From positions 62,001 through 126,000 of the forward strand of contig OZ025698.1 in NCBI GenBank assembly GCA_964019335.1: DNA of 64,000 nucleotides, written 5' to 3'. The DNA is from Diplonema japonicum (lineage: Eukaryota; Protista; Euglenozoa: Diplonemea). Position numbers and translations under genes: made by a program. Positions 25,472 through 54,258 of the stretch are shown here, piece after piece. The notes beneath the pieces were generated by a model. The model was not told the DNA's origin. It made no database searches and saw nothing but the letters and a program-made list of their open reading frames with translations. Positions within the stretch are counted from its first letter, which is position 1, and each line of letters opens with the position of its first letter.

Positions 25472-25800
25472 TGTTAGTAAAAAACAAAAAAAAAAGAAAG
25501 TGTTTTCCCTTCCCTTTACAAATTCACAAAGCCCCACCCCCCCATTACGTCATACCCCATAAAAAAAAAATAAAAAAAATAAAAAAAAAAATAAAAAAAC
25601 AACATAAAAAAAAAAAAAATTAAAAAAAAAAACAAACAAAAAAAAAAAAAAAAAAACATAAAGAACATAAACGAGCTAAAAAAAAAAAAAAAAACAACAA
25701 CAAAAAAAAAAAAGAAAAACCAAAAGAAAAAAAGTTGTCAAAAGAAAAAAGGAGGACAACAACAGCAACAAAAACAACAACAACAACAACAACAACAACA

Positions 25801-28800
25801 AGAGGTCTGCAGAACAACACAAGCACTTTGCACAAGAGAAGTATGTACGACTTGGCTACTTCCCGCGGTCGAATCCTGGCCGGCCCCAACCGAGGGTGTC
25901 CACGGGGGACAAGGCGTTAGTGGTGGCGACGAGAGGTCTGTTAGGGCCGGCCCCCCCCAAGTCGTACAACCCTATCTTCGAAGACCTGAAGGTAGGGGTG
26001 ACCACATAGGCAGTGCGTTGTTCTTGCAGTACCGACCTTCGACGGCCGCTTCAATGAGGAAGAGAAGATCCGGACCACATGGGATGGATATCTTGAGATG
26101 CGGCGACGTCGAACAAAACCCGGGGCCAGCCGTTGGTGGGGTGAGGAACGGGTGGCTCAAGATAGTCTCACTCAACGTAAGGTCCCTCAGAGCTAGGAAG
26201 GCCGAAATAGAGAGGGCTATCGATGAAATGGCGCCGGACATCCTGTGTCTCCAAGAGACACACCTTACATCAGACGATGACATGCATGGATGGTTCGACG
26301 GGTACAAAGCCTTTCGGAGGGACAGGACGAGGCCGAGAAGAAGAGGATTCCCCATTAAGGGCGGCGGCTTGTTGACACTCGTGAAGGAAGGCATCAGCGC
26401 CAGCAGGGTTTCAGCGAAGGAGAGCAGGGACGTGACAGAGAGGCTGGACGTGAAGATCTACCCACCGGGACAGAAAGAGATTCTCCTAGTGAACATTTAC
26501 CTCCCACCGACATCACCGTCAGATCCCAGCGATGACAGACCTGCCATCGACTCATACTTCAACCCGTACTCACTTCCTACTGGAGACAATACCCTGATCA
26601 TGGGGGACTTCAACGCCCATCACCCACTGTGGGATGGAAGGAAGAAAAAAGAAGACCCTATAGGAAGCAAAATCGCAGCGTGGATGGTCGATAAAGGGAT
26701 GAGACCCTGGAACGACAGATATAAGCCCACACTCCTTAACACAAGAGGGACACTATCCTCGCCAGACTTGGTTATAAGCGGACCTGACATGGAATCTACA
26801 TCCTGGACAACCCTAGAGTCATGGGGTTCCGACCACATTCCCATGTCCACAGAAAGGAGATTCTGCTTCAAAAAAGCGGATTGGGCTGGCTTCAGGGATT
26901 ATCTTGAGCACGCCCTAAGGCACCTGCAGAGAACAGGTGACCCCGTGAAATTGAACAAACAGTTCACGAACGCGATCAAAGAAGCCGCCAGGCTCTTCAT
27001 ACCGAGAGGTGGAGCAAGAGGTGGGAAAGCGTGGTGGACAGAAGAACTAACGCAGTTAGTTGCTCAGCGGAACGCTCTGAAAAAGGAGATAATGTCAGAC
27101 ATTGGCATCCCCTCGACTGAACAGTGCGAAAGACTCGGAGAAATCAGCCGACAAGTGCAGGAACAAATCGTCGTAGGAAAGAAAAGAGCGTGGGCTGAGT
27201 ACACGAAGGAATTGTCACAGAAGAAAGACCTGGGGCATGCTTTCAGGACGATAAAGACGCTCGATGGTAGGAAGGGCAAAGAACCTGTGGCGCCGCTGAT
27301 GGCTGGTGAAAGATTACACACCACAGCGACAGAGAAGGCAGACGCACTGGTGGACCACTACGCGGAGGCATTTGCACCGCAACTGAACAAGGACACCAAG
27401 AGAATGCTGGAAAGAGTAGAACGACTAACCAAGGAAAACGGTGGTCGGAATAACAGGACCGAGTGCCCCGATATAAGCATCGACGAATTGAAGTACGCAC
27501 TGAGGCAACTTAAAAAGGGGAAGTCCCCAGGCCCTGACGGTGTGTACAACGAGATGTTAAAGCACCTCGGGGAAACGGCCCTGGACGCGATGCTGCATCT
27601 CTTCAATATGTCGTGGGAGAAGGGTGTAGTTCCGTCGGATTGGAAATACACACACATCGTCCCGCTCTTCAAAGGCAAAGGAAAGCTGAAGAGCGAACCG
27701 GCATCGTACAGGCCGATCTCATTAACCTCGGGAATTTCAAAGACAATGGAGAGGATAGTGAAGATCAGGATCGACTACCACCAAGACGTGGGCAATGTAA
27801 AGAAGGTTCACAAAATGCAGTCAGGTTTCAGGAAGGGGCGTTCCACTGAAGAGAACGTCTTGCAGGTTACAACGAAACTAGATCGCATCAGAGGAGACGA
27901 GTTCTGCGGGGGTCTCCTGCTCTTTGACCTGAAAGGGGCTTTTGATACAGTCTGGCATAAAGGCCTGAACGCAAAGCTGAGATACAGCAAGTACCCGCAG
28001 AGGATAACGAACTGGGTCGCTGCCTTCCTGGACCAAAGGGTTGCAGCCGTCAAGGTGGACGGCAAGATAGGGAAACAAAGGCAGATAAAAGGAGGGGTTC
28101 CACAGGGGACGATCCTGGCTCCGACCCTCTTCTCATTATATATGGACGACCTGTCAGCGATTTTCGCAAAGGAGGGAATTGACGCTGTGATGTACGCAGA
28201 CGACATCGCGGTGGTGGTTCATGAGAAAGATGTTGAGAAACTGAACGAGAAGCTGTCGAGGGTCCTGAGGATCGTGGAGACTTGGTGTTCCTGGAACTCG
28301 ATGGTGATATCAAAAGACAAGACAGAGTTCTTGCCAGTAGCGGGCATCTCATATCCCCAAAGGACCCTAAAAGGGAAGATATCGGCAACCTTTGCGGGGG
28401 GGGAAGAGCTCAGGGTAGTTGAAAAAACAAAGCTGCTCGGAGTCACGTTTGAGGAAGACATGTTTTTCGCCGCACATACGGCAGACGTCTTGAGAAGGGC
28501 GGAAAGCAGAGTCAGGCTACTGAGAAGACTGGCAGGGACGAAGTGGGGTTGCAAGAAAGTGGTAATGAGGGCACTCTACCTCACGTACGTACAGCCAGTT
28601 TTCCGTTACTGTCTGGGGGCGTACGGACCTTTCGTGATAGGCGGGAGGGGCACGTACCACGAAGGAATCCAGAAGCTGCAGTACCGGGCAGCTTTAACGA
28701 TCACAGGATGTGTAGCGACATCAGAGACATTCGCTACACTAAACGAGGCTGGCTTGTGGACACTCGATGCGCTGATCGAACACGACAGTTTACTGCTGTA

Positions 28801-30280
28801 CGAGTCCATCATTAGGAAGGAGAACACAGCTGCCTTTCAAGCTACACAACCCCTGAAGGATCTGACCAGATACGAGGTACTGTTCCCGAAGAAAACATGG
28901 TCAGATCGACAAAGGGAAGCAGCCAGGGCCTACAAGCTCCCAGAGAGAGCGGCAACACCATTCTCAGGTTATGCCTTTGAGAAGAAGTACAGAGTTACAC
29001 CTTGGCAGAGATTCGAGGGTAAACTGATACTGGCCCCCTTCCTCGACATACATGTGAAGAGATCGGACACCAGTGAAGTCAGAAGGAAAGCAACAGAGGA
29101 CACTCTGAACGGGCTTATCGAGAAGCACGGAAAAGCCTTCTGCATGATCTTCACAGACGGGTCATTGAAGGACGGCAGGAACGGAGGAGCTGCTGCGATA
29201 CTGTTGCGAGGGGAGAGAAAAGCTTCGTATGGGGTCAGCGGTGGATCCTATACGTCATCCTACAGGTGCGAGCAAAGGGCCATAGAGCTGGGGCTGCACC
29301 TCGCGACAAACCTCTCGAAGAGAGTGGGCACGAGCCAAGAGATGGTCCTTATTTGCACTGATTCGCAGTCGGTAATAAGGAGGATGTGCCAGGGGCACCT
29401 GTCCGCTGTCTCTGCAGACGAGTACAAACTGTGGCACGAGGTAGCGGGACTTGTAAAGAGAGGCCACAAAGTGGTCATACAGTACGTACCAAGTCACTGC
29501 GGATTCAAATGGAACGAGATGGCGGACAAGAAGGCGAAGGAGACCTGCCGGGCAGTTGCCCACGAACAGAAGACCAGCATAGACATCGTGAAGTCACTGG
29601 TGAGAAAAAAGGTACTGGCGAACCACCTCCTCTTCTGGAAAAAAACGGGTGTCAAGGAGACATACCGAGAGCTTTTCGCAGGGAATTTCGAGAAGTTTGA
29701 AGAGTTAAACAGGGAACAAGAAGTTGCGATCATGAGGCTGAGAGTGGGGAAGAGCCCCCTCATAAGCGGGTATCTACTCAATCCCCCGGCCGATGTGGTC
29801 ACATGCCACCTTTGTTCGATGCCTCAGACGCTGAGCCACCTCCTGAAAGAATGCCAGGACGATGGTAGAGCTGACCAGAGAAGTCAGATCTTCGGTTCCT
29901 CCCTTCCTTCGCTCAAGGCCCTACTGTCAACTGACGCCGGGAAAACCGTACAATTCCTGGAACAGCAGGGCCTGTTGTGACCGACCGTGAGATATAATCC
30001 CCTTTATAAATTATATTATAAACTAAACTTTACTTAAATACTTTTCTCTCAAATTATCCTGAGTTTGAAGCTGTACTGTTGTTATACGACTTCAGACAGC
30101 AATTGTTTCTAACTCAATCTCTCGACTCTGGCTTCACTCCTATCCTTTCTTTTCACCTCCTCCCCAGTGTCTTCCCTTATTTTCCATTACCAGGCCCCTG
30201 ACCCCCGCCCCCAGTGTTATTCAAAATTTTCACTCACCTTTCATATAGAAAGAAAAAAGAAAAAAAAAAAGAAAAAAAGA
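25801..30280 (+). mobile_element. Ingi/L1Tc-like non-LTR element 'family C', single intact ORF with N-terminal 2A motif
   Basis: Structured leader, ORF ending at 29980, pyrimidine-rich 3' UTR, A-tail near 30248-30280. Confidence 0.85.
26054..29980 (+). CDS. Family C polyprotein: 2A (GDVEQNPGP) - APE - RT - RNase H - CCHC
   Basis: Canonical D(V/I)ExNPGP at 26105-26128; CLQETH, MGDFNAHH, SDH, YRPISL, FDLKGAFD, GVPQG, YADD, FTDGS, YVPSHCG, CHLC...HLLKEC. First in-frame ATG is at 26054. Confidence 0.92.
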   Translation: MRKRRSGPHGMDILRCGDVEQNPGPAVGGVRNGWLKIVSLNVRSLRARKAEIERAIDEMAPDILCLQETHLTSDDDMHGWFDGYKAFRRDRTRPRRRGFPIKGGGLLTLVKEGISASRVSAKESRDVTERLDVKIYPPGQKEILLVNIYLPPTSPSDPSDDRPAIDSYFNPYSLPTGDNTLIMGDFNAHHPLWDGRKKKEDPIGSKIAAWMVDKGMRPWNDRYKPTLLNTRGTLSSPDLVISGPDMESTSWTTLESWGSDHIPMSTERRFCFKKADWAGFRDYLEHALRHLQRTGDPVKLNKQFTNAIKEAARLFIPRGGARGGKAWWTEELTQLVAQRNALKKEIMSDIGIPSTEQCERLGEISRQVQEQIVVGKKRAWAEYTKELSQKKDLGHAFRTIKTLDGRKGKEPVAPLMAGERLHTTATEKADALVDHYAEAFAPQLNKDTKRMLERVERLTKENGGRNNRTECPDISIDELKYALRQLKKGKSPGPDGVYNEMLKHLGETALDAMLHLFNMSWEKGVVPSDWKYTHIVPLFKGKGKLKSEPASYRPISLTSGISKTMERIVKIRIDYHQDVGNVKKVHKMQSGFRKGRSTEENVLQVTTKLDRIRGDEFCGGLLLFDLKGAFDTVWHKGLNAKLRYSKYPQRITNWVAAFLDQRVAAVKVDGKIGKQRQIKGGVPQGTILAPTLFSLYMDDLSAIFAKEGIDAVMYADDIAVVVHEKDVEKLNEKLSRVLRIVETWCSWNSMVISKDKTEFLPVAGISYPQRTLKGKISATFAGGEELRVVEKTKLLGVTFEEDMFFAAHTADVLRRAESRVRLLRRLAGTKWGCKKVVMRALYLTYVQPVFRYCLGAYGPFVIGGRGTYHEGIQKLQYRAALTITGCVATSETFATLNEAGLWTLDALIEHDSLLLYESIIRKENTAAFQATQPLKDLTRYEVLFPKKTWSDRQREAARAYKLPERAATPFSGYAFEKKYRVTPWQRFEGKLILAPFLDIHVKRSDTSEVRRKATEDTLNGLIEKHGKAFCMIFTDGSLKDGRNGGAAAILLRGERKASYGVSGGSYTSSYRCEQRAIELGLHLATNLSKRVGTSQEMVLICTDSQSVIRRMCQGHLSAVSADEYKLWHEVAGLVKRGHKVVIQYVPSHCGFKWNEMADKKAKETCRAVAHEQKTSIDIVKSLVRKKVLANHLLFWKKTGVKETYRELFAGNFEKFEELNREQEVAIMRLRVGKSPLISGYLLNPPADVVTCHLCSMPQTLSHLLKECQDDGRADQRSQIFGSSLPSLKALLSTDAGKTVQFLEQQGLL

Positions 30281-30847
30281 AGGACAGATGATTCAAGCTT
30301 CGGTGTACACGATCGAGCTTGATTTGAATTCCTTTATTTTTGAGAAAAAAAAAAAAAAAAGAAAAAAAAAAAAAAAAAGAAGAATATATATAAAAAAAAA
30401 AAAAAAGAACTGTAGAACGAAACTTAATTGAATTGAATTTATTGGCTCCCGAAAGCCCAACAAGTCCAGCAGACGGTGGAGTTTCACAGTCAGCTGGTTA
30501 GTTTTTCACAATTGAAACTCCTCCAAAGTTCTTAAAGTCTGGGAGGTCGTCTCTTGTTACTAGAGGCGGCTAATGCCTCGAGACCCAGGTGCTGCCTGGT
30601 GGGTGGGATCGGTTTTATTTTATTATGAAAAGAGCGTGGTGAGGGGGTCCAAGTAATTTACAACAGGGAGCAGCGGACCAGGACCCCTCGACCAATGGCT
30701 CAGTAACAGAGACTGCTTTTCACGAATCACTTTCAAACACCTCTCTTGGTTTGAAGTGATGTCCCTTTCCCTTTCCCTTTCCCTTGAATGGTTTTCTCTA
30801 CTCCCCTTCGATCCTCCCGCCTGGTAGTGGAATATTTATTATTATTT
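30171..30847 (+). repeat. About 670-bp direct repeat, copy 1 (A-tailed modules and hairpins, ends in (TTA)n)
   Basis: Near-identical to 38508-39174. Confidence 0.95.
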
Positions 30848-30949
30848 AAAAAAAACAGAAAGAAAAGAAAGGAAAGAACAGAAAGAAAAGAAAAGAAAAG
30901 AAAAGAAAAGAAAAGAAAAGAAAAGAAAAGAAAAGAAAAGAAAAGAAAA

Positions 30950-33778
30950 ATGGGCAAGAAGAAAGACAAGCACAAGGAGAAGGCAAAGCCGGAAGGGAAC
31001 GGGGCCAGCACGCAGCTGGCCCAGTCCAAGGCCAGGGAGGAGCGGCGGGTGGAGAGGATGCTCCGCAGCGCTGGAGCAGCCGGGGAGCTGGGGCAGCTCC
31101 TGACGCCGGAGCACCGGGAGAAGATGACGGGGGTGGTCACCGTAATTGACCTCCTCACGCCCGACGCCGCCGCCGCTACAGCCGGCCCAGCGACACCTGT
31201 CGCCTCCACCCCGACCGGCTCCGTCAAAAGGCCGGTTTCGCCTGACGCCAGCGTCGCCACCCCGACCTCCAGCAAAAAAGCTAGGAGGAAGGCCGCCAGA
31301 GCCGCGCGCGCTGACGCTGCCGACGAAGCCGCACACATAGCTGACGCCACACACCCCCTCGAAGCCGCACGCACTGCGGCCGACGTCGAACTCGCGGGAA
31401 TCGCTGCTGATTTGGAAGCTGCACGCGAGTCGGCCGACGTGGTAGCTGCAGAAATAGCTGCTAAGATGAAGGCTGCGCAGGAGGTGGCTGATGCTGCTGT
31501 TGTCAAAATGGCAGCCGAGACGGAAGCTGCTCGCGTGGCTGGTGTGGAGGCTGCTCGCAGAGCAGTCGAGGCTGAGGAGAAGGCTCTGCGCGAGCGGTCT
31601 ACTGCACGACTTGCGGCAGAGGAGAAGGAGGCTGCGCGTGCTGCGGCCGAGATGAAAGCAGCCGAGGAGAAGAAGGCTACAGCCGCAGCCGCTGCAGCCG
31701 AGAAGAAGAAAGCCGCAGCCGCCGCCGCCGCCGAGAAGAAAGCAGCAGCCGCCGCCGCCGCCGAGGAGAAGGCCGCCGCCGAGAAGAAAGCCGCTGCCGC
31801 CGCCGCCGCCGAGAGGAAGGCCGCAGCCGACGCCGCCAGGAAGAAAGCTGCAGCCGCAGCCGCCGCCGCCGAGGAGAAGAAGAAGGTCGCAGCCACCGCC
31901 GCCGCCGAAAAGGAAGCCGCCGCAGCCGCTGCCAAAAAGGAGGAAGCTTTGAGGTTGGCGGCCGCCAAGAAGGCAGATGCCCAGAAGGTCGAGGACGAAG
32001 CAGTCGCGAACGCTTCCGCCAACGCGTCAACAGACCAAGGCACGCTCCTCCTCAGCTCAGACTCTGACACCAGCTCTGGCCCTGAGGAGATGGAGGACGA
32101 CCCTGCCCCTGCCCCTTCCACAACCCCGCGATGGGACCTGGTGCCAGACACATGGGACGCCCCGATCTACACCAACGTGTCCCCCCCGACGGAAACATCC
32201 CGCGCTGTCATTGCGCTCGACGATCCCTCCGAAATGGGGGTCGTGTGCTCCGCGTTACCTACGGCATCCATCACCTTTGTCCTTATGACAGAGGTCCCCG
32301 GTGTCACCACCCCCAGCGAGATTGTCATGGTCTCTGGGTCGCGCGCAGTGAACAGGAGGGTCCACGTCTCCACGTTCGGGCTGGACCCCCCCACCTACAC
32401 CCCGCCTTCCACCTTCAACAGCGGATCGGAGGTCGTCTACGTCTGTGTCAGTGCAGACAGCCTGAAGGAGGCGAAGGCCAGGGTCCTGGAGCTCGCCAAG
32501 GCTCAGGGCGCGGTGGTGGAGGATCGTGCGGTCTTCCGCCCAAGGAAGTTCGGTGAGGAGGAACCGCGGGCGAGGCACTGGACCCACGAGGTGGGACTGC
32601 GCCTGCAAGCAGCACACGTCCACGCCGTCCTGCGCCGGTCCGGGGACGGCTGCTTAATGCGGACGACGGAGAGACGCGGGGGGTACGCTTATGTACCCAT
32701 CGTGGCGGAAGGGAGGGCGGATGCCTATCGGATTGCGGGGACGCTGGGTGGGTTGTCTCTCGGGGTGGCGCACCGTAAGGGATGGACTGTGCGGTGCCTA
32801 CCGGAGACGGAACAGCGGCTCCGGAAGGCCCTCGCAAAACAGCGCACGAAGCGCAAGTTTTTGCTTACCGGGGCCCCGCCGTCCATCACCAGGGCGGCCT
32901 TCGACGAGATGATGGACCACATCGGCTGGAAACCATCCTCCGTCCTGCGACGCACGCAGACGATGTTCCAGGGCACGAGGCAACTCGTGTTCTTCATCGT
33001 CGTCGACAGCCCGCCCCCGAAGTCCAGGACGTGGCTCCTTGGGGGGCGCCTTGTCTGCCTCCGTGATGCGGACGACCACCCGACCGTCAAGCCGCCCCCT
33101 CTCATCAACAGGACGACACCTGCATCTGCACCTGCGCTTGCAACGTCCTCGACCCCGGCACCCACATCTTCTCATGTACCTGCACCTGCGCCTACTACAC
33201 CTGTACCTGACCCGGCACCTGTATCGGCGTCGACACCCTCGGAGACTGGCCCTGCGGTGAAAGCAACTGGGCTTCCTCCCACCAGCCCGTGGGCGTCCAT
33301 ACCGAGCTCGGTGGCTCCCCCCCAGCTCGACACTGTGACGTCCCCTACACCGCCCCGCAACGTGTCTGCGGGAAACAAGGAGGGAGTCCCTTCCGGGTCG
33401 CCTGAGGTCGCCGCTCTCACTGAGCTCGTCGCCACGCTGAAGGAGTCGATCGTCGGGCTGCAGAGGACGATCGACTCTCAGCAGGAGATGATCTCCGATC
33501 TGCGGACGACGCTCCGCCTCCTCCTGCCGCAGGCGGCCACGCTGACGACGGGAACGGCAGTGCCGCGGGACCCTACACCGGGGGCGACGACGACACACGA
33601 CAGTGTCTGGAAAGGGAAGGGGAAGGGGAAGAAGGGGGCTCCTCCTCTCGCTACGACCTCTGAGGCTGCGGTGACGAACCTGGGTACGAGGGGGCGGGCC
33701 AGGTCGTTCGCGGAGACCAAAGATCTCTTCACCAATGGGGTCAAGGGGCGCTCTGCCTCCATGGGTCCATCCAATTGA
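30950..33778 (+). CDS. A1 ORF1 (Ala/Lys/Glu-rich coiled coil, conserved central domain, Pro/Thr/Ser-rich tail); ends in a UGA in frame with ORF2
   Basis: ATG at 30950 after (AAAAG)n; central domain conserved with family B ORF1. Confidence 0.85.
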   Translation: MGKKKDKHKEKAKPEGNGASTQLAQSKAREERRVERMLRSAGAAGELGQLLTPEHREKMTGVVTVIDLLTPDAAAATAGPATPVASTPTGSVKRPVSPDASVATPTSSKKARRKAARAARADAADEAAHIADATHPLEAARTAADVELAGIAADLEAARESADVVAAEIAAKMKAAQEVADAAVVKMAAETEAARVAGVEAARRAVEAEEKALRERSTARLAAEEKEAARAAAEMKAAEEKKATAAAAAAEKKKAAAAAAAEKKAAAAAAAEEKAAAEKKAAAAAAAERKAAADAARKKAAAAAAAAEEKKKVAATAAAEKEAAAAAAKKEEALRLAAAKKADAQKVEDEAVANASANASTDQGTLLLSSDSDTSSGPEEMEDDPAPAPSTTPRWDLVPDTWDAPIYTNVSPPTETSRAVIALDDPSEMGVVCSALPTASITFVLMTEVPGVTTPSEIVMVSGSRAVNRRVHVSTFGLDPPTYTPPSTFNSGSEVVYVCVSADSLKEAKARVLELAKAQGAVVEDRAVFRPRKFGEEEPRARHWTHEVGLRLQAAHVHAVLRRSGDGCLMRTTERRGGYAYVPIVAEGRADAYRIAGTLGGLSLGVAHRKGWTVRCLPETEQRLRKALAKQRTKRKFLLTGAPPSITRAAFDEMMDHIGWKPSSVLRRTQTMFQGTRQLVFFIVVDSPPPKSRTWLLGGRLVCLRDADDHPTVKPPPLINRTTPASAPALATSSTPAPTSSHVPAPAPTTPVPDPAPVSASTPSETGPAVKATGLPPTSPWASIPSSVAPPQLDTVTSPTPPRNVSAGNKEGVPSGSPEVAALTELVATLKESIVGLQRTIDSQQEMISDLRTTLRLLLPQAATLTTGTAVPRDPTPGATTTHDSVWKGKGKGKKGAPPLATTSEAAVTNLGTRGRARSFAETKDLFTNGVKGRSASMGPSN

Positions 33779-36700
33779 AGGGGCCCCGCAGAACAGGGGG
33801 AGCAGCAGATCTACGACCATGCTCCCTCTCCTAGTCTCCCTCGCATCCTCCCCAGGAGACTCCTACCTCTCTGTTTCTTCACCGACTTTTCTGCACTGAT
33901 CCCCACCCTACTCGGGAGGATGTCCGTCAGGGACCTGCTGGGGCTGCTTGGGCTGGTCGAAACAAACCCTGGCCCACCCAAGAAGCTGCCGCCCCCGTCG
34001 CCTAAGGGTCTCAAGGTTGTCTCGTGGAACTGCAACGGCCTCGTTGCGAAATGGACCGTCGTATCTCGCCATGCTGACTTCTTGTCGCTGGACATCATCA
34101 TGATACAGGAGACGCACCTGAGGGAAGGGCACGACACGCCACACCTGCCTGGGTACAGGTCATACAGGAGGGATCGGTTGACACCGGTGACTGACGGCAC
34201 TGCGACGAGGGGTGGTGGTATTGTCACGTATGTCCGCGACGATCTTGCCTCGGAGGAGGTTCCGCACGTACTCCCGGCTGGGGACTGTGTCACTGAGAGA
34301 CTGGATGTGAGGATCTCCTGCGAGAAGCGTGAGCCGATCACTCTCTCCAACGTTTACCTTACACCGGTAAGCGCGAGCAGAGGCACGAGGGACCCTGAGT
34401 ACCTGCGGCCTGGCAGCCTTCCCATGGGGAAGAACACAGTCATAGCGGGTGACTTCAATGCTCACCACAGCTCCTGGGACGCCACGGTGACGACGCCGAA
34501 CGAGAGGGGGAACGTGGTCAGGGACTGGCTGGACACCCACGGGTACTCCGTCTACAACGACCGCAACGAACCGACGAGGGACTCGTCACGACACGTTCTG
34601 GACCTGGTTGTGGGGCGCTGCGCGAAGCTTGAGCCGAAGACGCTGGGCACGTGGGGCTCCGATCATAGTCCCGTATCCTTTCACCTGCCTCTTGAGGACG
34701 TCTACCGTTCGGAGCGCCCCTTCCCCACCTGGAATTTCAAAAAAGCCAGATGGGATGACTACACTGCTGCTGTTGCCCGCCTGCTTGCTGGTGTTGACAC
34801 GGCGGCTCCGATTGACTCTGTCACGAAGGGGTTTACACAAGCCCTTTTGACTGCGGCGAACGACCACATTCCCCTCTGTGGGATGCGACGTGGCCCGACC
34901 CCCTGGTGGACTGCTGAGCTCGAGGACGCCTTCGAAGAGCGGAACACCCTGCGCGAACTCCTGCTTCAAGAGGCGGACGTGGTGGTGGAGGAGTACAGGG
35001 CGAAGGTGAAGGAAGTCAACCGACTCCTTGACGAGACGAAGCGTGAGGCATGGGGAAGGATGGCGGCCGACCTCAGCCGGAGCAAGGACCTCGGGGCTGC
35101 GTTCAGAGCGGTGAAGAAGCTGGACGGCAGGCACCGAAAGACACACCTTCCTGTACTCGAGGGAAGATTTGTGTCGGACAAGGCGAAGGCCGACCGGCTG
35201 GGGGCGCACTTCGCTAAGCTCTACGGCAGGCGTGGTGACGGGAACTCGAAGGACGCCGCTCCTTCTGCAAGCAGACTCGGGTGTCAAGCGTTCACCGTGG
35301 ACGACCTCACCCGCGGCCTGAGAAGGATGAAGACGCGCAGCGCGGCCGGGGAAGACGGAATCTTCTCGGAGATGCTCCTTCACCTTAACTCGGACTCCCT
35401 CGGTGTTCTCCTTCTACTCCTCAATCGCTCCTGGCTGATGGGTGTCGTTCCCGGTGCCTGGAAGAAGGGAGTGATCGTCCCGGTACCGAAACCTGGAAAA
35501 GATGCGACTCTCTTGGCTTCCTACCGGCCGATCTGCCTGACCAGCTGCCTCTGCAAGCTGCTGGAGAGGATGATCGAGGAGAGGCTCACGTTTCTTCTTG
35601 ACGCGGATGGGACGGGAGTCGAGGGACTCCACGACAGCCAGGCTGGTTTCAGACGCGGCCGCTCCACGGAGGAGCAGGTGGCAACCCTCACTGAGTGCAT
35701 GTCGAGGAACAAAGACGATCGACGTCTCTCGGCCGCTCTGCTGTTCGACTTCTCTTCTGCCTTCGACCTGGTGCCCCATGGTGCCCTGCTGGACAAGATG
35801 CGAGGGAAGGGTCTCCCCGAACCCTTCGTGGAGTGGACGCGGTCCTTTCTATGCGGCCGTACTGCTGCGGTCACGATTGGACGGTCGAGGGGGTCGACGA
35901 CGAAGGTGCGACGGGGTGTCCCCCAGGGCTCTGTCTTGGGTCCCATCCTGTACACCATGTACGTCGACGAACTCGCCAGGAGACTGGAGGGACTGGCGGA
36001 CGTCTCGGTGCTCTACGCCGACGACGTGGCGGTTGTGATCTCCTCTGGACAAGGGGACGTGGCTGGGCTGGAGCGGAAGGCGCAGGCAGTGGTGGATGCG
36101 GTTGAGGACTGGTGCAGGGAGCGTGACATGCTGCTGAGCACGTCCAAGACGCAGGCAGTCTGCGTCCCCCCCCAGAAACGTCTCGGGGTCTACTTCACTT
36201 CGTCACGAGTCCCCCTTCAGCCAGGTGCCTTCCAGAACCCACTCTTCGGCCTGGGGGTGAACGCCGATGGCACGATCTCCGGGGACCAGGAGCTGGCGGG
36301 CCTTCAGGTTGTGGAGGCGGGTGGTGTGCGGATCCGCTGCGTGCGGGACATGCATGCAGCCGTGCGACGGCCCGACGTGGACTACGTTGCGGCCCGTCCC
36401 CTGCCTCTGTCTGAACACGCGAGGTACCTTGGGGTAACGGTGGACTCTGGGCTCACGTTCGGTGAACACGCACAGGACATCCTACGGCGGGCCAGCAAAA
36501 GGCTGAGGGTGCTGAAGCTCTTGTCCGGCACGTCCTGGGGCAGCAAGAGGGACACTCTGCGGTCTCTCTACGTTACGTACATCCTCCCGCTGCTGCGCTA
36601 CTGCATGGGGGTCTACTACAGCAGGCTCGATGATGTCGGGAGGAAGGACCTGGCTGGGCTTCACCAGGAGGCGGCGGTGCTGATCACGGGCTGCTGGAGT

Positions 36701-38071
36701 GGCTCCGGAGGGTACAAGCTCCTAGCTGAGGCAGGACTGCTTCCCCTCGAAAGAATGGCTGAGGGTGCTGCGGCGACGATGACGGCGAAGGCCTTCTGCT
36801 GGCAGTCTTCCCCGGTTCACAGGGAGACGGTCAAGCTGAAGCAGGCGAACAGGCTGGGGTGTGGGTGGCTGCGCTCTGGCTACCAAGCACTGCGTCGATG
36901 CGGGTTGGAACCAAAGGTGCACTTCGAGTACCTGTCGGCTACGCCCCTGGCGGCCCCGTGGCAGACAGGCATGGTCGACTTCAGGACTGACCTCCCCGGC
37001 GGGGTCACGCGATCGTCGCCAGACGCGGACAGGCGGAAGGCGGCCGAGGCTGCTCTTGCGGCTCTCCCCCCGGGCATCCATGCCTACACGGATGGCTCGG
37101 TTGTACAGGTCGGACAGAAGGCGAAAGGTGGCTCTGGGGTTTATCTGCAGCTGCCTCCCCCCCTGACCCCTGTGTCTGTGTGCCATGGCGTCAACGACTT
37201 CTGTTCATCTTTTCGGGCAGAGGGCATGGCTGTGAAAACGGCGCTGGATATGGTGGCTACCCTCCGAAAAACACACCCTTCGCTGGCGAAGTCCCCGCTG
37301 TCGATCTGCACCGACTCCCTCTCCCTCGTCGAGCAGCTGCGAGCTGGCCCAACGCGACAGAGGGAGAAGCTCGACCACCAGACGTGGAGCCGGCTGGTGA
37401 CCGCGGCGCGCACGCAGGGGACACCGGTGGTCCTCCAGTTTGTGCCCTCCCACTGTGGGGTGGACGGGAACGAGAAGGCTGACGCTCTGGCCGTGGAGGG
37501 AACGAAGCGGAAGCAGGACAGGCCCTCCCTTGACTACCGATCAGTGAGGGCCCTGGTGCGACGGTGGGTGGTGCGGAGGTCCGCGGAGCTCATAACATCC
37601 CTCGCCCACAACTACGCGGTGGCGACCGAGCTTCGGTCCGCGCACTTCCCCCTTGGCTTCCCCAGACAAGCTGAAACGGTCATCTCGCGGCTGCGGATTG
37701 GTCACTCGGCTCTCTTCTTCGGCTTCCTGCAGACTGCTGGCCCGAACAGGAAGCACAAGGGTGTGCTCCGGTGCCCAGCCTGCCACGCAGCACCGATGTC
37801 CAGGGAGCATGTTGTCGGTGGGTGCCCTGTGATCGGGAGGGGGGCGATCGACACTCCTGCTGGTACTCCCTCCCTAGCCTTCTCCCTGTCGAGACGCGTG
37901 ACCCAGATCTACGACCTCATTGTTGAGTCTGGCCTGCTCGCCTGGTCACGCTCCGGACTGTTCACCTCGCCATCATCCCTGGCGTCTACAGACGTCACTG
38001 CACCTTCAAACGTGCCGCCTCCTCCTCCGGTCTCTCTTGACGCCGGTCCCGCGGCCCCCGTGCTGCGCTAA
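33779..38071 (+). CDS. A1 ORF2: linker + 2A-like LVETNPGP - APE - RT - RNase H - CCHC (first ATG 33920; frame open from the ORF1 stop)
   Basis: VVSWNCNG, MIQETH, AGDFNAHH, SDH, YRPICL, FDFSSAFD, GVPQG, YADD, YTDGS, FVPSHCGVDGNEKAD, CPAC...HVVGGC. Confidence 0.92.
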   Translation, partial: RGPAEQGEQQIYDHAPSPSLPRILPRRLLPLCFFTDFSALIPTLLGRMSVRDLLGLLGLVETNPGPPKKLPPPSPKGLKVVSWNCNGLVAKWTVVSRHADFLSLDIIMIQETHLREGHDTPHLPGYRSYRRDRLTPVTDGTATRGGGIVTYVRDDLASEEVPHVLPAGDCVTERLDVRISCEKREPITLSNVYLTPVSASRGTRDPEYLRPGSLPMGKNTVIAGDFNAHHSSWDATVTTPNERGNVVRDWLDTHGYSVYNDRNEPTRDSSRHVLDLVVGRCAKLEPKTLGTWGSDHSPVSFHLPLEDVYRSERPFPTWNFKKARWDDYTAAVARLLAGVDTAAPIDSVTKGFTQALLTAANDHIPLCGMRRGPTPWWTAELEDAFEERNTLRELLLQEADVVVEEYRAKVKEVNRLLDETKREAWGRMAADLSRSKDLGAAFRAVKKLDGRHRKTHLPVLEGRFVSDKAKADRLGAHFAKLYGRRGDGNSKDAAPSASRLGCQAFTVDDLTRGLRRMKTRSAAGEDGIFSEMLLHLNSDSLGVLLLLLNRSWLMGVVPGAWKKGVIVPVPKPGKDATLLASYRPICLTSCLCKLLERMIEERLTFLLDADGTGVEGLHDSQAGFRRGRSTEEQVATLTECMSRNKDDRRLSAALLFDFSSAFDLVPHGALLDKMRGKGLPEPFVEWTRSFLCGRTAAVTIGRSRGSTTKVRRGVPQGSVLGPILYTMYVDELARRLEGLADVSVLYADDVAVVISSGQGDVAGLERKAQAVVDAVEDWCRERDMLLSTSKTQAVCVPPQKRLGVYFTSSRVPLQPGAFQNPLFGLGVNADGTISGDQELAGLQVVEAGGVRIRCVRDMHAAVRRPDVDYVAARPLPLSEHARYLGVTVDSGLTFGEHAQDILRRASKRLRVLKLLSGTSWGSKRDTLRSLYVTYILPLLRYCMGVYYSRLDDVGRKDLAGLHQEAAVLITGCWSGSGGYKLLAEAGLLPLERMAEGAAATMTAKAFCWQSSPVHRETVKLKQANRLGCGWLRSGYQALRRCGLEPKVHFEYLSATPLAAPWQTGMVDFRTDLPGGVTRSSPDADRRKAAEAALAALPPGIHAYTDGSVVQVGQKAKGGSGVYLQLPPPLTPVSVCHGVNDFCSSFRAEGMAVKTALDMVATLRKTHPSLAKSPLSICTDSLSLVEQLRAGPTRQREKLDHQTWSRLVTAARTQGTPVVLQFVPSHCGVDGNEKADALAVEGTKRKQDRPSLDYRSVRALVRRWVVRRSAELITSLAHNYAVATELRSAHFPLGFPRQAETVISRLRIGHSALFFGFLQTAGPNRKHKGVLRCPACHAAPMSREHVVGGCPVIGRGAIDTPAGTPSLAFSLSRRVTQIYDLIVESGLLAWSRSGLFTSPSSLASTDVTAPSNVPPPPPVSLDAGPAAPVLR

Positions 38072-38507: not shown

Positions 38508-38683
38508 CTTCCCTTATTTTCCATTACCAGGCCCCTGTCCCCCGCCCCCAGTGTTATTCAAATTTTTCACTCACCTTTCATATAGAAAGAAAAAAGAAAA
38601 AAAAAAAAAGAAAAAAAAGAAGGACAGATGATTCAAGCTTCGGTGTACACAATCGAGCTTGATTTGAATTCCTTTATTTTGAG

Positions 38684-38715
<32 letters not shown>

Positions 38716-39174
38716 AAAAGAAAAAAAAAAAAAAAAAAAACTGAAGAACGAAACTTAATTGAATTGAATTTATTGGCTCCCGAAAGCCCAACAAGTCCAG
38801 CAGACGGTGGAGTTTCACAGTCAGCTGGTTAATTTTTCACAATTGAAACTCCTCCAAAGTTCTTAAAATCTGGGAGGTCGTCTCTTGTTACTAGAGGCGG
38901 CTAATGCCTCGAGACCCAGGTGCTGCCTGGTGGGTGGGATCGGTTTTATTTTATTATGAAAAGAGCGTGGTGAGGGGGTCCAAGTAATTTACAACAGGGA
39001 GCAGCGGACCAGGACCCCTCGACCAATGGCTCAGTAACAGAGACTGCTTTTCACGAATCACTTTCGAACACCTCTCTTGGTTTGAAGTGATGTCCCTTTC
39101 CCTTTCCCTTGAATGGTTTTCTCTACTCCCCTTCGATCCTCCCGCCTGGTAGTGGAATATTTATTATTATTATT
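38508..39174 (+). repeat. About 670-bp direct repeat, copy 2
   Basis: Near-identical to 30171-30847; differs mainly in A-tract lengths. Confidence 0.95.
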
Positions 39175-39267
39175 AAAAAAAAAACAAAAGAAAAGAAAAG
39201 AAAAGAAAAGAATCATGTATTATTATTAAAAAAAAAACAAAAGAAAAGAAAAGAAAAGAAAAGAATC

Positions 39268-41496
39268 ATGTCGACCTCCAACAAGAAGAAAAAGAGGCCC
39301 GCTCACCACAAGTCCAGGACGGAAGAAATCCTGGAGAAAGCCCGCGGTGAGCGGGTAAAGGACAACGCCGCCGCCAGGGCGAAGCGCACGCGCGAGGAGG
39401 TGGAGAGGAAGCGCGCAGAGGGGGTCACGCCGGTGGTGACACCCTCCCCCGGGCAAGGGAAGAAGGCGGCCAGAAGGGCCAGACAGAAGGCAGCAGCTGC
39501 TGACGCTGCCACCGCCGCCGCTTCGGGCTCCGACGACTCTGTCGTCTTAATTAGCGAGTCGCCGGGCGTTGTCACCTCGTTCACGGTCGACACGCCAGAG
39601 GTCAGGAGGGCGAGGATGAGGACTGCTGCCGCCGACACCACTGCCACTGCTCCTGCACCTGCTGCTGCCAACACCACTGCTCCTGCACCTGCTGCTGCCG
39701 ACTCCCCTGCTCCTGCACCTGCTGCTGCCGACACCACTGCTCCTGCGCCTGCTGCTGCCGACTCCCCTGCTCCTGCGCCTGCTCCAGCCTCTACTGCTGC
39801 CGTGTGGTCTACTGCCGTCCTCACTGCCGCTGCCTGCGACACCGCCCTCCCCATGTCGGACTCTGACACCGACGAGAAGGACACGGCCCCCGCTCCCGCA
39901 CCGGCCCCGGAGCCTCACTGGGATCTGGTCCCCGACACGTGGGACGCCCCCATCTACACCAACACTGCTCCCCCTGAGGAGGTGCCCCGCGCCGTCGTCG
40001 CTCTCGACGACCTCCAGCAGGTGGACGCGATTCGCACTGCGAGGCCCACGGCCTCCCTGACCTTCGTCCTCTTGACGGAGGTTGCCGGTTCGACCACCCC
40101 ATGCACCGTCATCGTACTCGCCGGCCAGCGTGTCGTGCACAAGGCCGTGCACACCTTCTCGGTCGGGTCGAACCCCCCCTCCTACACCCCACTCGCTTCT
40201 TTTGATGGCGGCTCTGAGGTAGTGTACGTCAGCGTGAAAGCTGACAGCGTGAACGCGGCGAAGGCCAGGGTTCGGGACCTCGTCGCGACCCAGGGCGTGG
40301 CGGTGGAGGAGCAGGCGATCTTCCGCCCGAAGAAGATCGACGGGAACGAGCCGCGGGCGCGGCACTGGAGCCACGAGGTGGGCCTGCGGCTCCCGGCGGC
40401 ATCCGTCCATGCGGTACTCCGGGCCTCGGGCGACGGCTGCATGGTCAGGACGACCGAGCGGCGCGGGGGGTACACCTACGTGCCCATCGTAGCGGAGGGG
40501 AGGGCGGAGGCCTTCCAGCTGGCGAAGGCACTGGGCGGGTTGTCCCTGGGGGTGGCCCATCGCAAGGGTTGGACCGTGAGATGCCTGCCGGAGACGGAGC
40601 AGCGTCTGAGGGAGGCCCTCGCCAAGCAGAGGACAAAGCGTCGGTACCTGCTCACCGGAGCCCCGCTGTCTGTTACCAGGGCAGCCTTCGACGGGATGAT
40701 GGACCACATCGGTTGGAAGCCGTCGTCCATCATCCGACGCTCTGACACGGCGTTCCAGGGCACGAGGCAACTCGTGTTCTTCATCGTCGCCGACGCCCCG
40801 CCCCCCAAGGCCAGGACATGGCTCTTCGGCTCTCGTCTCGTTCGACTGCACGACGCGGAAGACCACCCGAGCGTCACGCTCCCGCCCCGCACCAACAAGA
40901 AGGCTCCACCCGCGGCTCGGACGCCGGTTGCGGCAACCACGGCCCAGACGCCGACGCCGGCCCCTGGCCCCACGGTGCAGTCCACAGGGCTGCCGAGCAC
41001 CAATCCGTGGTCATCTCCACCGAGCTCGGTTGCCCCTCCGCCACTTGGCACTGTGACTCCGGTCTCCTCTGCGGCTTCCCCGACCACGACACCTCCCCGT
41101 GACTCCCAGAAGAAGAATCCCGCACCGGAACCAGAGGTCCCGGCGCTCCTCGCGCTGATCCAGTCGATGCAGGCGACCATCGACGGTCTGCAGGCGACGG
41201 TCCGCGACCTCCAGGAGAGGATGGCAGCGTCACTTGGCGCGCCGGCGTCATCTGCAGACGGAGCTGGGCGGACGGCAGTGGCTGGGAAGGGCAAGGGCGG
41301 CAAGGCTGGGTCCAAGGCAGGGACGAAGGGGCACCAGGCGCAGGGCGTAAGCACGCCAGGCCCCTACCCGACATCGACGGAGCAAGGGGGCGGAAGGGGA
41401 CGCGCCCAGTCGCTGGCTGGCGACTCTGCTTCCCCCAACGGGGCCGGCCGTGGACGGGCAGCCTCTGTGGGCCCGGCCCCCGCCCCTGCCAATTGA
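39268..41496 (+). CDS. Family B ORF1 (PAPAAAD repeats + conserved central domain); ends in a UGA in frame with ORF2
   Basis: ATG at 39268; WDLVPDTWDAPIYTN...MMDHIGWKPSS core shared with A ORF1. Confidence 0.85.
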   Translation: MSTSNKKKKRPAHHKSRTEEILEKARGERVKDNAAARAKRTREEVERKRAEGVTPVVTPSPGQGKKAARRARQKAAAADAATAAASGSDDSVVLISESPGVVTSFTVDTPEVRRARMRTAAADTTATAPAPAAANTTAPAPAAADSPAPAPAAADTTAPAPAAADSPAPAPAPASTAAVWSTAVLTAAACDTALPMSDSDTDEKDTAPAPAPAPEPHWDLVPDTWDAPIYTNTAPPEEVPRAVVALDDLQQVDAIRTARPTASLTFVLLTEVAGSTTPCTVIVLAGQRVVHKAVHTFSVGSNPPSYTPLASFDGGSEVVYVSVKADSVNAAKARVRDLVATQGVAVEEQAIFRPKKIDGNEPRARHWSHEVGLRLPAASVHAVLRASGDGCMVRTTERRGGYTYVPIVAEGRAEAFQLAKALGGLSLGVAHRKGWTVRCLPETEQRLREALAKQRTKRRYLLTGAPLSVTRAAFDGMMDHIGWKPSSIIRRSDTAFQGTRQLVFFIVADAPPPKARTWLFGSRLVRLHDAEDHPSVTLPPRTNKKAPPAARTPVAATTAQTPTPAPGPTVQSTGLPSTNPWSSPPSSVAPPPLGTVTPVSSAASPTTTPPRDSQKKNPAPEPEVPALLALIQSMQATIDGLQATVRDLQERMAASLGAPASSADGAGRTAVAGKGKGGKAGSKAGTKGHQAQGVSTPGPYPTSTEQGGGRGRAQSLAGDSASPNGAGRGRAASVGPAPAPAN
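39622..39800 (+). repeat. About 30-bp coding tandem repeat (APAPAAAD(T/S)(T/P))
   Basis: Unit gctgctgccgac(a/t)cc(a/c)ctgctcctgc(a/g)cct, about 5 copies. Confidence 0.85.
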
Positions 41497-44400
41497 AGGG
41501 GTCCCGCTGAGCAGGGGGGGCGTCAGATCGACGACCACGCCCCCTCTCCTGGTCTCCCGCGCATACAGCCGAGGAGACACCTTCCACATCACTTGTACGA
41601 CGTCCTCCCTTCCTTGATCCCTTCCTTACTTGAACGGATGTCGGCCAGGGACCTGCTGGGGCTGCTTGGGCTGGTTGAGACGAACCCCGGTCCACCTAAG
41701 AAGCTCCCACCCCCGAAGCCGAAGGGACTCAGGGTCCTGTCCTGGAACTGCAACGGTCTTGCCGCCAAGTGGTCAACCGTGTCCTACCACGCTGTCCTAC
41801 TGACGCTGGATATCATTATGATCCAGGAGACACACCTTAGGGAGGGGCATGAGACACCATACCTGCCTGGATACACGTCCTACAGGAGGGACCGCACAAC
41901 ACCGGTGACGGACGGCTCTGCGACGAGAGGCGGTGGTGTCATCACGTATGTCCGTGACTGCCTTGCCTCGGAGGAAGCTCCTTTCGTACTCCCTGAAGGT
42001 GACAGTGTCACCGAGCGATTAGACGTGAGGATCTCCTGTGTGAAGCGCGTCCCGGTCACCCTCTCCAACGTGTACCTCACGCCTGTGAGTATAAGCAGAG
42101 GGACAAGGGACCCCGAGTACCTACGGCCGGGCAGCCTACCTGTGGGGAAGAACACGATCGTTGCTGGCGACTTCAACGCACACCACAGCTCTTGGGATGC
42201 CAAGGTGACAACGCCCAACGAAAGGGGGAACGTGGTCAGGGACTGGCTTGACACCCACGGCTACACCGTCTACAACAACCGTGACGAGCCGACGCGGGAC
42301 TCACCGCCACGCGTTCTGGACCTGGTGGTGGGACGTTGTGCGGAACTGGAGCCGAGGACGTTGGGGACGTGGGGCTCTGATCACAGCCCGGTTTCCTTCC
42401 GCCTGCCGCTTGAGGACGCCTACTGCTCGGAGCGACCCTGCCCTACCTGGAACTTCAAAAAGGCCAGGTGGGACGACTTCACCGCGGCCGCCGCTGCCCT
42501 TCTGACCAAGATCGACACGAAGGCCCACATTGACTCCTTCACGAAGGAGGTTACAGAGGCTCTTCTGCATGCAGCTGACGACCACATTCCGCTTTGCGGA
42601 GTGCGACGAGGCCCGACCCCCTGGTGGACGGCCGAACTCGAAGACGCCTTCGAAGAACGGAACGCCCTGCGGGATCGCTTCCTCAAGTCGGCTGAGACTG
42701 AGGACGACAGCGTGGCGGCGGTCTACAAGGCGAAGGTCAAGGAGGTAAACCAACTCATGACCGAGTCGAAGCGCGCGGCCTGGGGTGAGATGGCGGCTGA
42801 CCTCAGTCGGAGCAAGGACCTCGGGTCTGCGTTTAGGGCGGTGAAGAAGCTGGACGGCAGACACCGCAGACCGCACCTTCCCATTCTCGAGGGGAGGTTC
42901 GTGACGGACAAGGCGAAAGCCGACCGCCTGGGGGCTCACTTCGGCAAGCTCTACGGCCAGGGTGGTGATGGGGACGCGGTGGACGTAGCTCCTTCGACGA
43001 ACGTGCTTGGGTGCCACGCCTTTACGGTGTATGATCTCACCCGCGGTCTGGGAAGGATGAAGACACGCAGTGCAGCGGGTGATGATGGCATCTTCGCGGA
43101 GATGCTTCTCCACCTCGACCAACCCTCGCTCGGGGTTCTACTTCTGCTCCTCAATCGCTCATGGCAGGCGGGGATCGTGCCGGGTGCCTGGAAGAAGGGG
43201 GTGATTGTTCCAGTGGCGAAGGCAGGGAAGGACGCCACGTTGCTTGCATCGTACCGTCCCATATGTCTCACTAGCTGTCTTTGTAAGCTGCTTGAGAGGA
43301 TGATAGAGGAGAGGCTTACCTTTCTCCTAGACTCTAGCGCGTCGGGCGTTGAGGGTCTCCACGACAGCCAGGCTGGCTTCAGGAGGGGCCGCTCCACGGA
43401 GGAGCAGGTGGCGTCCCTGACCGGGTGTCTGTCGAGGAACAAAGACAGTCGGCGTCTGTCGGCTGCCCTGCTGTTTGACTTCTCATCTGCGTTTGACCTG
43501 GTTCAGCACGAAGCTCTCTTGGGCATGATGCGGAGGAAAGGGATCCCTGAGCCCTTCGTCGAATGGACGCGCTCCTTCCTCTGCGGTCGTACGGCGGCGG
43601 TCACGGTGGGTCGTTCGCGAGGGTCGACGACGAAGGTGAGGAGAGGGGTGCCCCAAGGGTCTGTGCTGGGACCCGTCCTTTACACCATCTACGTCGACGA
43701 GCTAGCCAGGTTGCTGGTTGGGATGGCGGACCTGTCGGTTCTTTATGCCGACGATGTTGCGGTGGTGGTCTCAGCCGGGCAGGGCGACCTGGCTGGTCTT
43801 GAGCGAGGGGCCCAGGCTGTGATGGACGCGGTTGAGGGCTGGTGTGGGAGACGGGGCATGCTGCTGAGCTCCAGCAAGTCGCAGGCAGTGTGCGTTCCCT
43901 ATCAGAAGCGGCTTAATGTCTACTTCTCTTCGTCGCGTGTCCCGCTTTGCCCGGGGGCCTTCCAGGACCCTGTCCTTAATCTTGGGGTTGGGGTCTGTGG
44001 GACCTTGTCTGGCGTCCGTGAGCTGTCTGGCTTTCGGGTCGTGGAGGCGGGTGGCAAACGGTCCTTCGACATTCCCGCCGCCATCCGGAGGTCCGACATT
44101 GGTTACATGGCGGCTCGCCCCTTGCCTCTATGTGGGTCGGCGAAGTATCTTGGGGTCACTGTAGACTCTGGGCTCACGTTTGACGAGCATGCGGGGGATG
44201 TCCTGAGGCGCGCTGACAAGAGGCTGAGGGTTCTAAGGCTCCTGTCGGGCACGACCTGGGGGTGCAAGAAGGCCACGCTCCGTTCACTGTACCTCACGTA
44301 CGTTCTCCCGCTACTCCGGTACTGCATGGGTGTTTACTTTGCCAGGCTCAGGGACAGCAGGGTGGAGGAGCTTGTTGGGCTCCACCAGAGAGCGGCGGTG

Positions 44401-45804: not shown

Positions 45805-46563
45805 AGTGAGTAGGGTGAGATCAACATTTCAATTCTTTTAGTGCTTACGTTCCCTTCCCCTCTCTTCCACTCCCTCTCATCCTTTTCTTTATCATCATCC
45901 GGCGTCTGGCCTTTCTCTTACCAGTATGCCCGTCCCCTTTTAAACTTTTAAATTTTTAAAATTAACATCCTCTTGTTATCGTGTGCCCTGACATTGTAGT
46001 CAAAAACGGATGGCCCGGCCTACTCTGAAGTTGCCCAGATGAGTCCTCTCATCTTCGCACGAACGAGTGTGGTACGGCCATCCCCTCCCCCCGCCAGCCG
46101 GAGTGCAGCGGGGAGAGCAAATGCTTCCCCTATCATCCCCATGCGCACACGCACACTCGCTTCCCCTTTTGATTTTGAGAGATTTTACTCTCACCCTTTC
46201 ATGTTTCGCTCAATGGAGCAAATCCCTCTCGAGGGGGCGACCGGGGCCAGTTCCGGTCACCAGAGGTCCCAGTTGAGAAAAACGACGAACTGGGGTCAAG
46301 GTCCCCGTCCGAGTCACGTAGGTCTACGCGGCTTGGAATTAAAGTAATTCAGCCCTCTTCGGCTGTTCCAAACAGGTGCACGGGTTGGCGGAGTCCACAG
46401 CTCCATCTGATTGCAGAAGAACTGGTCTTCGCCCTCCCTGTAATATTTCCATGCTTCCCTTCACCTTTCCCCTTCCCAGGTGTTGCTCCCCCATGGTGGC
46501 ACCTATTGGTATTTTGAAAAAAAAAAAAAACAGGGCGAAAAAGAAAAGAAAAGAAAAGAAAAA

Positions 46564-47517: not shown

Positions 47518-47548
<31 letters not shown>

Positions 47549-54222: not shown

Positions 54223-54255
<33 letters not shown>

Positions 54256-54258
54256 AGG

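Follow-up and report, generated by a model that had tools for sequence, protein, structure and literature searches.

Ribosome access to the second open reading frame (ORF2) on the bicistronic RNA of long interspersed nuclear elements (LINEs) has been described as an open question (PMC3894237), and readthrough of the ORF1 stop codon has already been proposed for the Group 3 non-long-terminal-repeat (non-LTR) retrotransposons of Paramecium tetraurelia (PMC5405496). Here, a stretch of 64,000 nucleotides (nt) from Diplonema japonicum (contig OZ025698.1, positions 62,001 to 126,000, hereafter the window) was analysed. The window is rich in LINEs and carries a tandem row of three full-length copies of one family, A1, B and A2, in each of which ORF1 and ORF2 share a frame and are separated by an in-frame UGA followed by a 47-codon linker. 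The linker, which lies upstream of the first ATG of ORF2, is very likely translated despite the UGA, judging from its pattern of selection, and readthrough by a minority of ribosomes is given slightly better than an even chance of being the source of the ORF2 protein (ORF2p).

The Paramecium elements belong to a separate ciliate clade, and the accessible part of their report (PMC5405496) describes neither a 2A motif nor a test for selection on a linker; by comparison, the present family carries RNase H and a 2A-like motif, and selection has been measured on its linker of 47 codons. SART1 and human L1 (PMC5972666, PMC10275272) are likewise bicistronic LINEs with low ORF2 output, and downstream structure matters in SART1; however, the two ORFs overlap at UAAUG in SART1 and are separated by a 63-nt spacer in L1, whereas the spacer here is 141 nt long and evolves as coding sequence. 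Ingi, L1Tc and other 2A-bearing LINEs with an apurinic/apyrimidinic endonuclease (APE) domain (PMC12278014, PMC3708506, PMC3894237) resemble the family in the order APE, reverse transcriptase (RT), RNase H, in a 2A-like motif ahead of APE, in the poly(A) end and in the euglenozoan host. Ingi elements are reported to lack ORF1, and the presence of 2A correlates with ORF1 loss (PMC3708506), whereas an in-frame ORF1 of 742-942 amino acids (aa) is present here; the family differs further in a Leu for Asp exchange in the motif and in apparently tRNA-Gly-targeted insertion, and no Pr77 sequence or ribozyme was detected. The sources covered also record LINEs that have ORF1 plus 2A, and cases in which ORF1 and ORF2 domains are fused with a 2A motif between them. 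The junction shares with murine leukaemia virus (MuLV) gag-pol, alphavirus nsP3-nsP4 and Drosophila kelch (PMC3159437) the arrangement of a structural gene and a polymerase on either side of a single in-frame stop, with the polymerase downstream, and a predicted stem 3′ of that stop, but differs from structure-stimulated readthrough as described there in its UGA-AGG context, its spacer of 16 nt as against 6-12 nt, the lack of a demonstrated pseudoknot and its location in a non-LTR element. Gag-pol systems use a protease for release, the place of which would be taken here by 2A, if by anything.

A preliminary description of this locus had proposed UGA readthrough followed by 2A release (StopGo) and knew of no such combination in non-LTR elements. 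None was found for any retrotransposon in the literature covered, which took in few subscription papers and no Repbase reports; within the same literature LINE readthrough has so far been predicted only, and no paper on recoding in diplonemid LINEs was found. The D. papillatum genome paper (PMC10161547) mentions LINE ORFs and, in its accessible part, not their recoding. The A/B junction is short, intact, represented in a transcriptome assembly and measurably selected, and so allows a direct reporter test.

Organisation of the copies and the ORF1-ORF2 junction

The DNA of A1 and A2 is 97.5% identical and that of A1 and B is 74.6% identical over ORF2, so that the three copies represent two independent subfamilies, A (A1, A2) and B. 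Their features are as follows (the arrow marks the 2A junction).

30950-33778, + strand: A1 ORF1, 942 aa, terminated by UGA, without a Pfam family
33776-33778, + strand: A1 in-frame UGA between ORF1 and ORF2, predicted readthrough site
33779-33919, + strand: A1 linker, 47 codons, under purifying selection in the ORF2 frame
33795-33829, + strand: A1 predicted hairpin of 10 bp, candidate readthrough stimulator
33920-33922, + strand: A1 first ATG of the ORF2 frame, codon 48, at -18 from the 2A junction
33928-33957, + strand: A1 30-nt block, the same in B, possibly (a weak lead) pairing with the bases right after the UGA
33950-33976, + strand: A1 2A-like motif GLVETNPG↓P, in which Leu takes the place of the canonical Asp
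33779-38071, + strand: A1 ORF2 frame, 1430 codons, with APE, RT, RNase H and a C-terminal Cys/His motif
39268-41496, + strand: B ORF1, 742 aa, with its UGA at 41494-41496
41497-45804, + strand: B linker (41497-41637) and ORF2, with the hairpin at 41513-41547, ATG at 41638 and GLVETNPGP at 41668-41694
46564-49485, + strand: A2 ORF1, about 973 aa, with its UGA at 49483-49485
49486-53775, + strand: A2 linker (49486-49626) and ORF2, with ATG at 49627 and GLVETNPGP at 49657-49683

The junction is as the preliminary description gave it: the shared frame is interrupted by AAT-TGA-AGG-GGY-CCC-GCN in A1 (33776-33778), B (41494-41496) and A2 (49483-49485), and 47 stop-free codons (141 nt, without an insertion or deletion) lead from the UGA to the first ATG at 33920, 41638 and 49627. 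The UGA, the invariance of which had been put forward as a check, is present in three of three copies and in both lineages. GLVETNPGP occupies codons 58-66 after the UGA and is followed by the APE domain in all three copies. Pfam matches to ORF2 of A1 and B comprised PF03372/PF14529 (APE), PF00078 (RT) and, after RT, PF00075 (RNase H), with PF03372 beginning at codon 81 of the ORF2 frame; an endonuclease of this type followed by RT identifies an APE-type LINE. Further features typical of LINEs were also found: poly(A) ends at five places, two copies that are 5′-truncated, and a target duplication in which CAGGGCG stands on either side of A2.

ORF1 of A1 matched no Pfam family. Its conserved core evolves with a ratio of non-synonymous to synonymous changes (dN/dS) of 0.22 between A1 and B. 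Structural-atlas matches resembling an RNA recognition motif all scored below 0.9 and are a weak lead only, the structure model of the core (predicted local distance difference test score 36) was unusable, and a protein search with ORF1 gave one match, with D. japonicum as the sole organism. Over the region searched, a Diplonema japonicum protein in EukProt matches the ORF2 protein of copy A at 100% identity, and A1 ORF1 is 98% identical to EukProt P0046 of the same species, with both ending at the same residue. These transcriptome-derived ORF1 (ORF1p) and ORF2 proteins come from the same Trinity gene, and the EukProt ORF2p, P0001, is called as starting at the ATG of codon 48.

UGA serves as a stop in the usual way here: across 13 long ORFs (13,253 codons) there are 214 TGG and no internal TGA, on which grounds a genome-wide reassignment of UGA to sense was rejected, and ORF2 itself ends in TGA in B and in TAA in A. 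A selenocysteine codon was considered, and no SECIS (selenocysteine insertion sequence) family was among the 16 Rfam matches in the window (E up to 5), a search that divergent elements could escape. Among the 23 listed runs there was no RNA run containing the sequence, which counts neither for nor against. Contigs of four of these 23 showed no alternative letter across 33386-33957; the run type is not stated, rare forms are dropped from such contigs and the best of them may be the window's own source, which lessens what they can say for readthrough. It appears extremely improbable that a dead element with a single ORF acquired the UGA as a nonsense mutation, or that UGA codes for an amino acid in this host. 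Broken copies exist in the window, since the distant LINE C (14267-19819) has an in-frame TGA plus a 3′ frameshift; however, the same UGA occurs in two subfamilies (synonymous divergence, dS, about 0.9), in the transcriptome proteins and in run contigs, the ORFs are otherwise intact, A2 has a target-site duplication, and the codon counts above oppose the sense-codon version.

Selection on the linker

The preliminary description regarded the linker as conserved at the protein level next to diverged ORF1 tails, and proposed dN/dS below 1 as a check. Both points held. Between A1 and B the linker has 21 synonymous and 20 non-synonymous differences, giving a dN/dS of 0.21 (Fisher p 3e-5) that falls inside the range of ORF2 segments (0.08-0.32), whereas the ORF1 tail upstream has a dN/dS of 0.47 and many insertions and deletions. 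Such length changes are also many in the 3′ untranslated region, and there are none in the 141-nt linker. Identical residues number 30 of 47, as against a permutation mean of 22.5 (p 0.0007). The signal sets in with the first codons after the stop: codons 1-30 have a dN/dS of 0.15, and 12 of their 18 differences lie at third positions. When every predicted stem is left out, eight of ten differences in these codons still fall at third positions (p 0.0013). The six synonymous codon pairs listed earlier are all real (codons 2, 4, 5, 14, 15 and 21), and first-position synonymous swaps occur before the ATG in Leu and Arg codons (CTG/TTG, CTA/TTA, AGG/CGG). The other five frames of the linker gave dN/dS values of 0.45-1.4, each with a stop in A1 and/or B; the value of 0.45 belongs to the antisense frame that has its third positions in common with the ORF2 frame, and an antisense ORF as the source of the codon bias was ruled out by stops in all three antisense frames. 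The absence of stops from the linker is uninformative by itself, because 44% of permutations are also stop-free.

An invariant in-frame stop with coding selection directly downstream was found in three of three copies and two lineages. Since the UGA is present in both lineages and these lie approximately 0.9 synonymous changes per site apart, the linker has been under coding selection while the stop was present, and since it is selected as protein in the ORF2 frame only, it is very likely translated, upstream of the ATG, despite the UGA.

The same selection would be accounted for equally well by termination at the UGA followed by an AUG-independent restart at or just past it (for example at AGG, one base off AUG), or by loading akin to that at an internal ribosome entry site (IRES), with the linker forming a separate N-terminal peptide of ORF2p, as does the pre-2A peptide of L1Tc, and no fusion to ORF1. 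An unconventional termination-reinitiation has been proposed for L1, and SART1 requires downstream structure (PMC5972666); a non-AUG start at an intergenic-region IRES has been proposed for LINEs (PMC3894237); and two metagenome loci, L046 and L077, have an in-frame TAA-ATG stop-restart. However, such a restart needs no in-frame ORF1, which would arise by chance once in three, and no IRES family exceeded its Rfam threshold. AGG is in addition a very poor initiator codon. On balance this route is rather unlikely.

A start of ORF2 at the ATG (33920 in A1, 41638 in B), on a spliced-leader trans-spliced mRNA or by reinitiation, with the linker kept for its RNA structure, was judged improbable. In its favour, Euglenozoa use spliced-leader trans-splicing generally (PMC10161547), the pyrimidine content of linker nt 43-141 is 62-75%, AG dinucleotides are common to A1 and B at five places, and the ATG is conserved, with relatives carrying a Met 14 residues before the 2A junction. 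This explanation leaves unaccounted for both the third-position bias outside stems and the first-position synonymous swaps before the ATG. In B, moreover, there is no AG from the last pyrimidine tract to the ATG, and the loose ends found at the linker in the four-run contigs (run type not stated) continue into B-type sequence only, with no leader-like end.

Minor cis-splicing could also remove the stop by use of an acceptor AG two bases past the UGA (TGAAG/GG, the slash marking the splice point), fusing ORF1 to the linker. This AG is kept in A1, A2 and B, selection begins right after it, and GT-AG introns are common in Diplonema (PMC10161547). However, no joint bridging the stop was found in the contigs of the four runs, no fused protein was among nine matches (search over 786-2503 aa), and spliced RNA would retrotranspose as a stop-less copy, of which there are none among the three; splicing of this kind is thus very improbable.

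Proposed readthrough and predicted RNA structure

The proposal that a leaky UGA gives rise to ORF2p stood in part: it is the most economical account of the coding selection on the linker, and an AUG-independent restart just past the stop cannot be told apart from it by sequence alone. We regard minority readthrough of the UGA, perhaps aided by the hairpin and with or without a 2A-like release to follow, as marginally probable. Most ribosomes would end at the UGA and yield ORF1p (942 aa in A1), and a few would insert an amino acid there and continue through the 47-codon linker. Skipping at GLVETNPG↓P would yield two proteins, an ORF1p extended to 1008 aa and a free ORF2p of 1365 aa beginning at Pro; without skipping, a 2373-aa ORF1-ORF2 fusion resembling Gag-Pol would result, or the motif might act as a stall that reduces ORF2p output.

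Readthrough sites typically have a stem 3′ of the stop with a spacer in between (PMC3159437), and the predicted hairpin is a candidate stimulator of this kind. Its first stem base is nt 17, leaving 16 nt between the UGA and the stem. In two of its ten pairs both bases differ between A1 and B, A2 having a G-U intermediate at one of the two, and the pair probability of the hairpin is 0.6-1.0 in A1 and B and 0.03-0.23 in A2. A long-range stem between nt +1 to +13 and the 30-nt block identical in A1 and B (33928-33957), which is the longest such run in the ORF2 frame (the next being 26, 26 and 24 nt), would be a weak lead: as a duplex partner the block ranks first in A1 and seventh in B, in a different register. 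In the Rfam scan only tRNA exceeded its threshold, and a DUF3800-XI match over the NPGP codons was dropped as it lay under the gathering score. No ribozyme was found by Rfam, and a descriptor for ribozymes resembling that of hepatitis delta virus (HDV), applied without a positive control, was also empty.

A number of observations weigh against readthrough. The context UGA-AGG-GGY fits neither the UGA-CGG nor the CAA-UYA leaky context, and the 16-nt spacer exceeds the 6-12 nt past the stop at which known readthrough stems begin (PMC3159437). A2 favours a different fold over the hairpin, covariation in the hairpin is not significant (107 of 500 shuffles, with three sequences only), and the junction segments fold no better than shuffled ones (z -1.4 to +0.4). 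A further known leaky context is UGA-CUA, which UGA-AGG does not match either. Linker codons 31-39 are unconserved (0 of 9 identical), and codons 40-47 taken alone do not reach significance (permutation p 0.13). As A1 and A2 are 97.5% identical, the linker comparison amounts to one lineage pair, and with its two lineages all junction DNA comes from one species. Finally, the ATG at -18 from the 2A junction is kept in A1, A2 and B, and a Met is found at -14 in the relatives P0002, P0051 and element D.

Distant relatives from metagenomes (21-34% identity) were of little help: among the best 80 of 207, many of which lack upstream DNA, none had NPGP near the start of APE and none combined a long ORF1 in frame with a long linker free of AUG after it. 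A search of IMG/VR gave no match. In three distant metagenome LINEs, L006, L007 and L010, ORF1 overlaps a long open ORF2 frame, which may represent frameshift junctions.

The 2A-like motif

The preliminary description placed a 2A-like motif directly before the APE domain. The position is as claimed, but the core is not canonical, a point left unflagged at the time: the class A core (G/H)D(V/I)ExNPG↓P is matched at eight of nine positions, with Leu replacing Asp. GLVETNPGP would belong to the single-substitution class X of 10.64898/2026.09.24.754024. VETNPGP is the same in A1 and B although five of its seven codons differ synonymously, and the motif stands where relatives carry GD(V/I)ExNPGP. 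The upstream leucine tract is present as L-L-G-L at -13 to -10, with a further Leu at -9; Leu at -13, -12, -10 and -9 fits the pattern of active peptides (10.64898/2026.06.17.732966). In a quick tree of 96 of 103 rows (seven were dropped by an RT length filter), A and B fell within a 77-row group rich in pre-APE 2A motifs (Shimodaira-Hasegawa-like approximate likelihood ratio test 99); the tree contained no labelled ingi sequence.

Among relatives, [NH]PGP was found in 49 of 153 proteins, with 50 motifs in total and one of these at a non-homologous place. Position -7 is Asp in 39 motifs, Gly in seven and Leu in none, and none of the Asp -7 substitutions tried left F2A or P2A active (10.64898/2026.09.24.754024); both observations speak against an active motif in A and B and, with it, against release of ORF2p. 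However, natural 2A variants with Gly or Thr at the Asp position are active (10.64898/2026.09.24.754024), and one LINE motif with Asp-to-Gln is active, while activity is weak or absent in many of the 2A-like motifs of LINEs (PMC3708506). Skipping at GLVETNPG↓P is therefore a genuine but doubtful possibility, somewhat short of an even chance. The suggestion that StopGo frees ORF2p from Pro accordingly remains in doubt: the position of the motif and the leucines favour it, and the Asp to Leu change, with no Leu among the 50 motifs of relatives, counts against it.

The full scheme of two recoding events in series, with UGA readthrough setting the ratio of ORF1p to ORF2p and a Leu-type 2A freeing ORF2p 66 codons later, is unlikely. 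If true, it would be the first readthrough-plus-StopGo cassette in a retrotransposon and would add an active 2A core to those known; the family would then stand, as a living intermediate, between LINEs with two ORFs and the 2A-bearing ingi elements with one. The junction bears in any case on the proposal that elements with ORF1 plus 2A are intermediates in ORF1 loss, and a Leu-type motif that skips would extend the 2A core, at least on euglenozoan ribosomes.

Two further elements carry motifs of this type. Element D (25595-29980, + strand) has a canonical GDVEQNPGP before APE and no evident ORF1 of its own, with a long open stretch upstream. The nearest relative, P0002 (EukProt, D. ambulator), carries three degenerate motifs, GDVHKNPGP, HKNPGP and GDVHRHPGP, in an N-terminus that is duplicated; 2A degeneracy therefore recurs in diplonemid LINEs.

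Insertion sites and other features of the window

The 5′ end of tRNA-Gly(GCC) genes appears to be where the A/B family inserts and stacks in tandem. The features concerned are as follows.

54259-54329, + strand: tRNA-Gly(GCC) gene that the A2 poly(A) immediately precedes, probably the target of insertion
57819-57889, - strand: second tRNA-Gly(GCC) gene, immediately preceded by the poly(A) of a 5′-truncated A copy (59820-57891)
54211-54329, 57920-57819 and 46505-46540: regions with the evidence for tRNA targeting

Two of the five poly(A) ends adjoin a tRNA gene, that of B adjoins CAGGGCG, which is also found at the 3′ end of A2, and two adjoin neither. The CAGGGCG duplication flanking A2 takes in the first three bases of the tRNA. 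A 5′ flank of TATTATT, an A-run and CA is common to four copies (21799, 30840, 39165 and 59842). A 784-bp flank upstream of A1 (30171-30947) recurs with 92.6% identity upstream of B (38508-39265), directly after the A1 poly(A). At 21820-24094 (+ strand) lies a rearranged A copy, in which a short ORF2 fragment comes first and part of APE then runs straight into the RNase H end, approximately 2.2 kb being absent.

The distant LINE family C (14267-19819, + strand) also has ORF1 and ORF2 in frame across a TGA, at 15869-15871. It has no ATG in the approximately 187 codons before APE and no 2A motif, and is represented by a single copy with a frameshift near 19819. Element C was considered as a second readthrough family and was not confirmed as such: a search gave no close relative (three matches, the best at 39%), and the nearest ones are called with a Met shortly before APE. 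A possible solo-ORF1 element lies at 24155-25471 (+ strand): its ORF1 resembles that of family C at 34-36%, terminates in TAG and has an A-rich tail approximately 90 nt further on.

Host genes are found on the - strand at 7076-8518, 5134-5892 and 8808-10883. The set includes a membrane adenylate/guanylate cyclase (PF00211), with TGA as its stop, a GTPase identified as Rab-like by eye, and a repeat protein that is either secreted or in the membrane.

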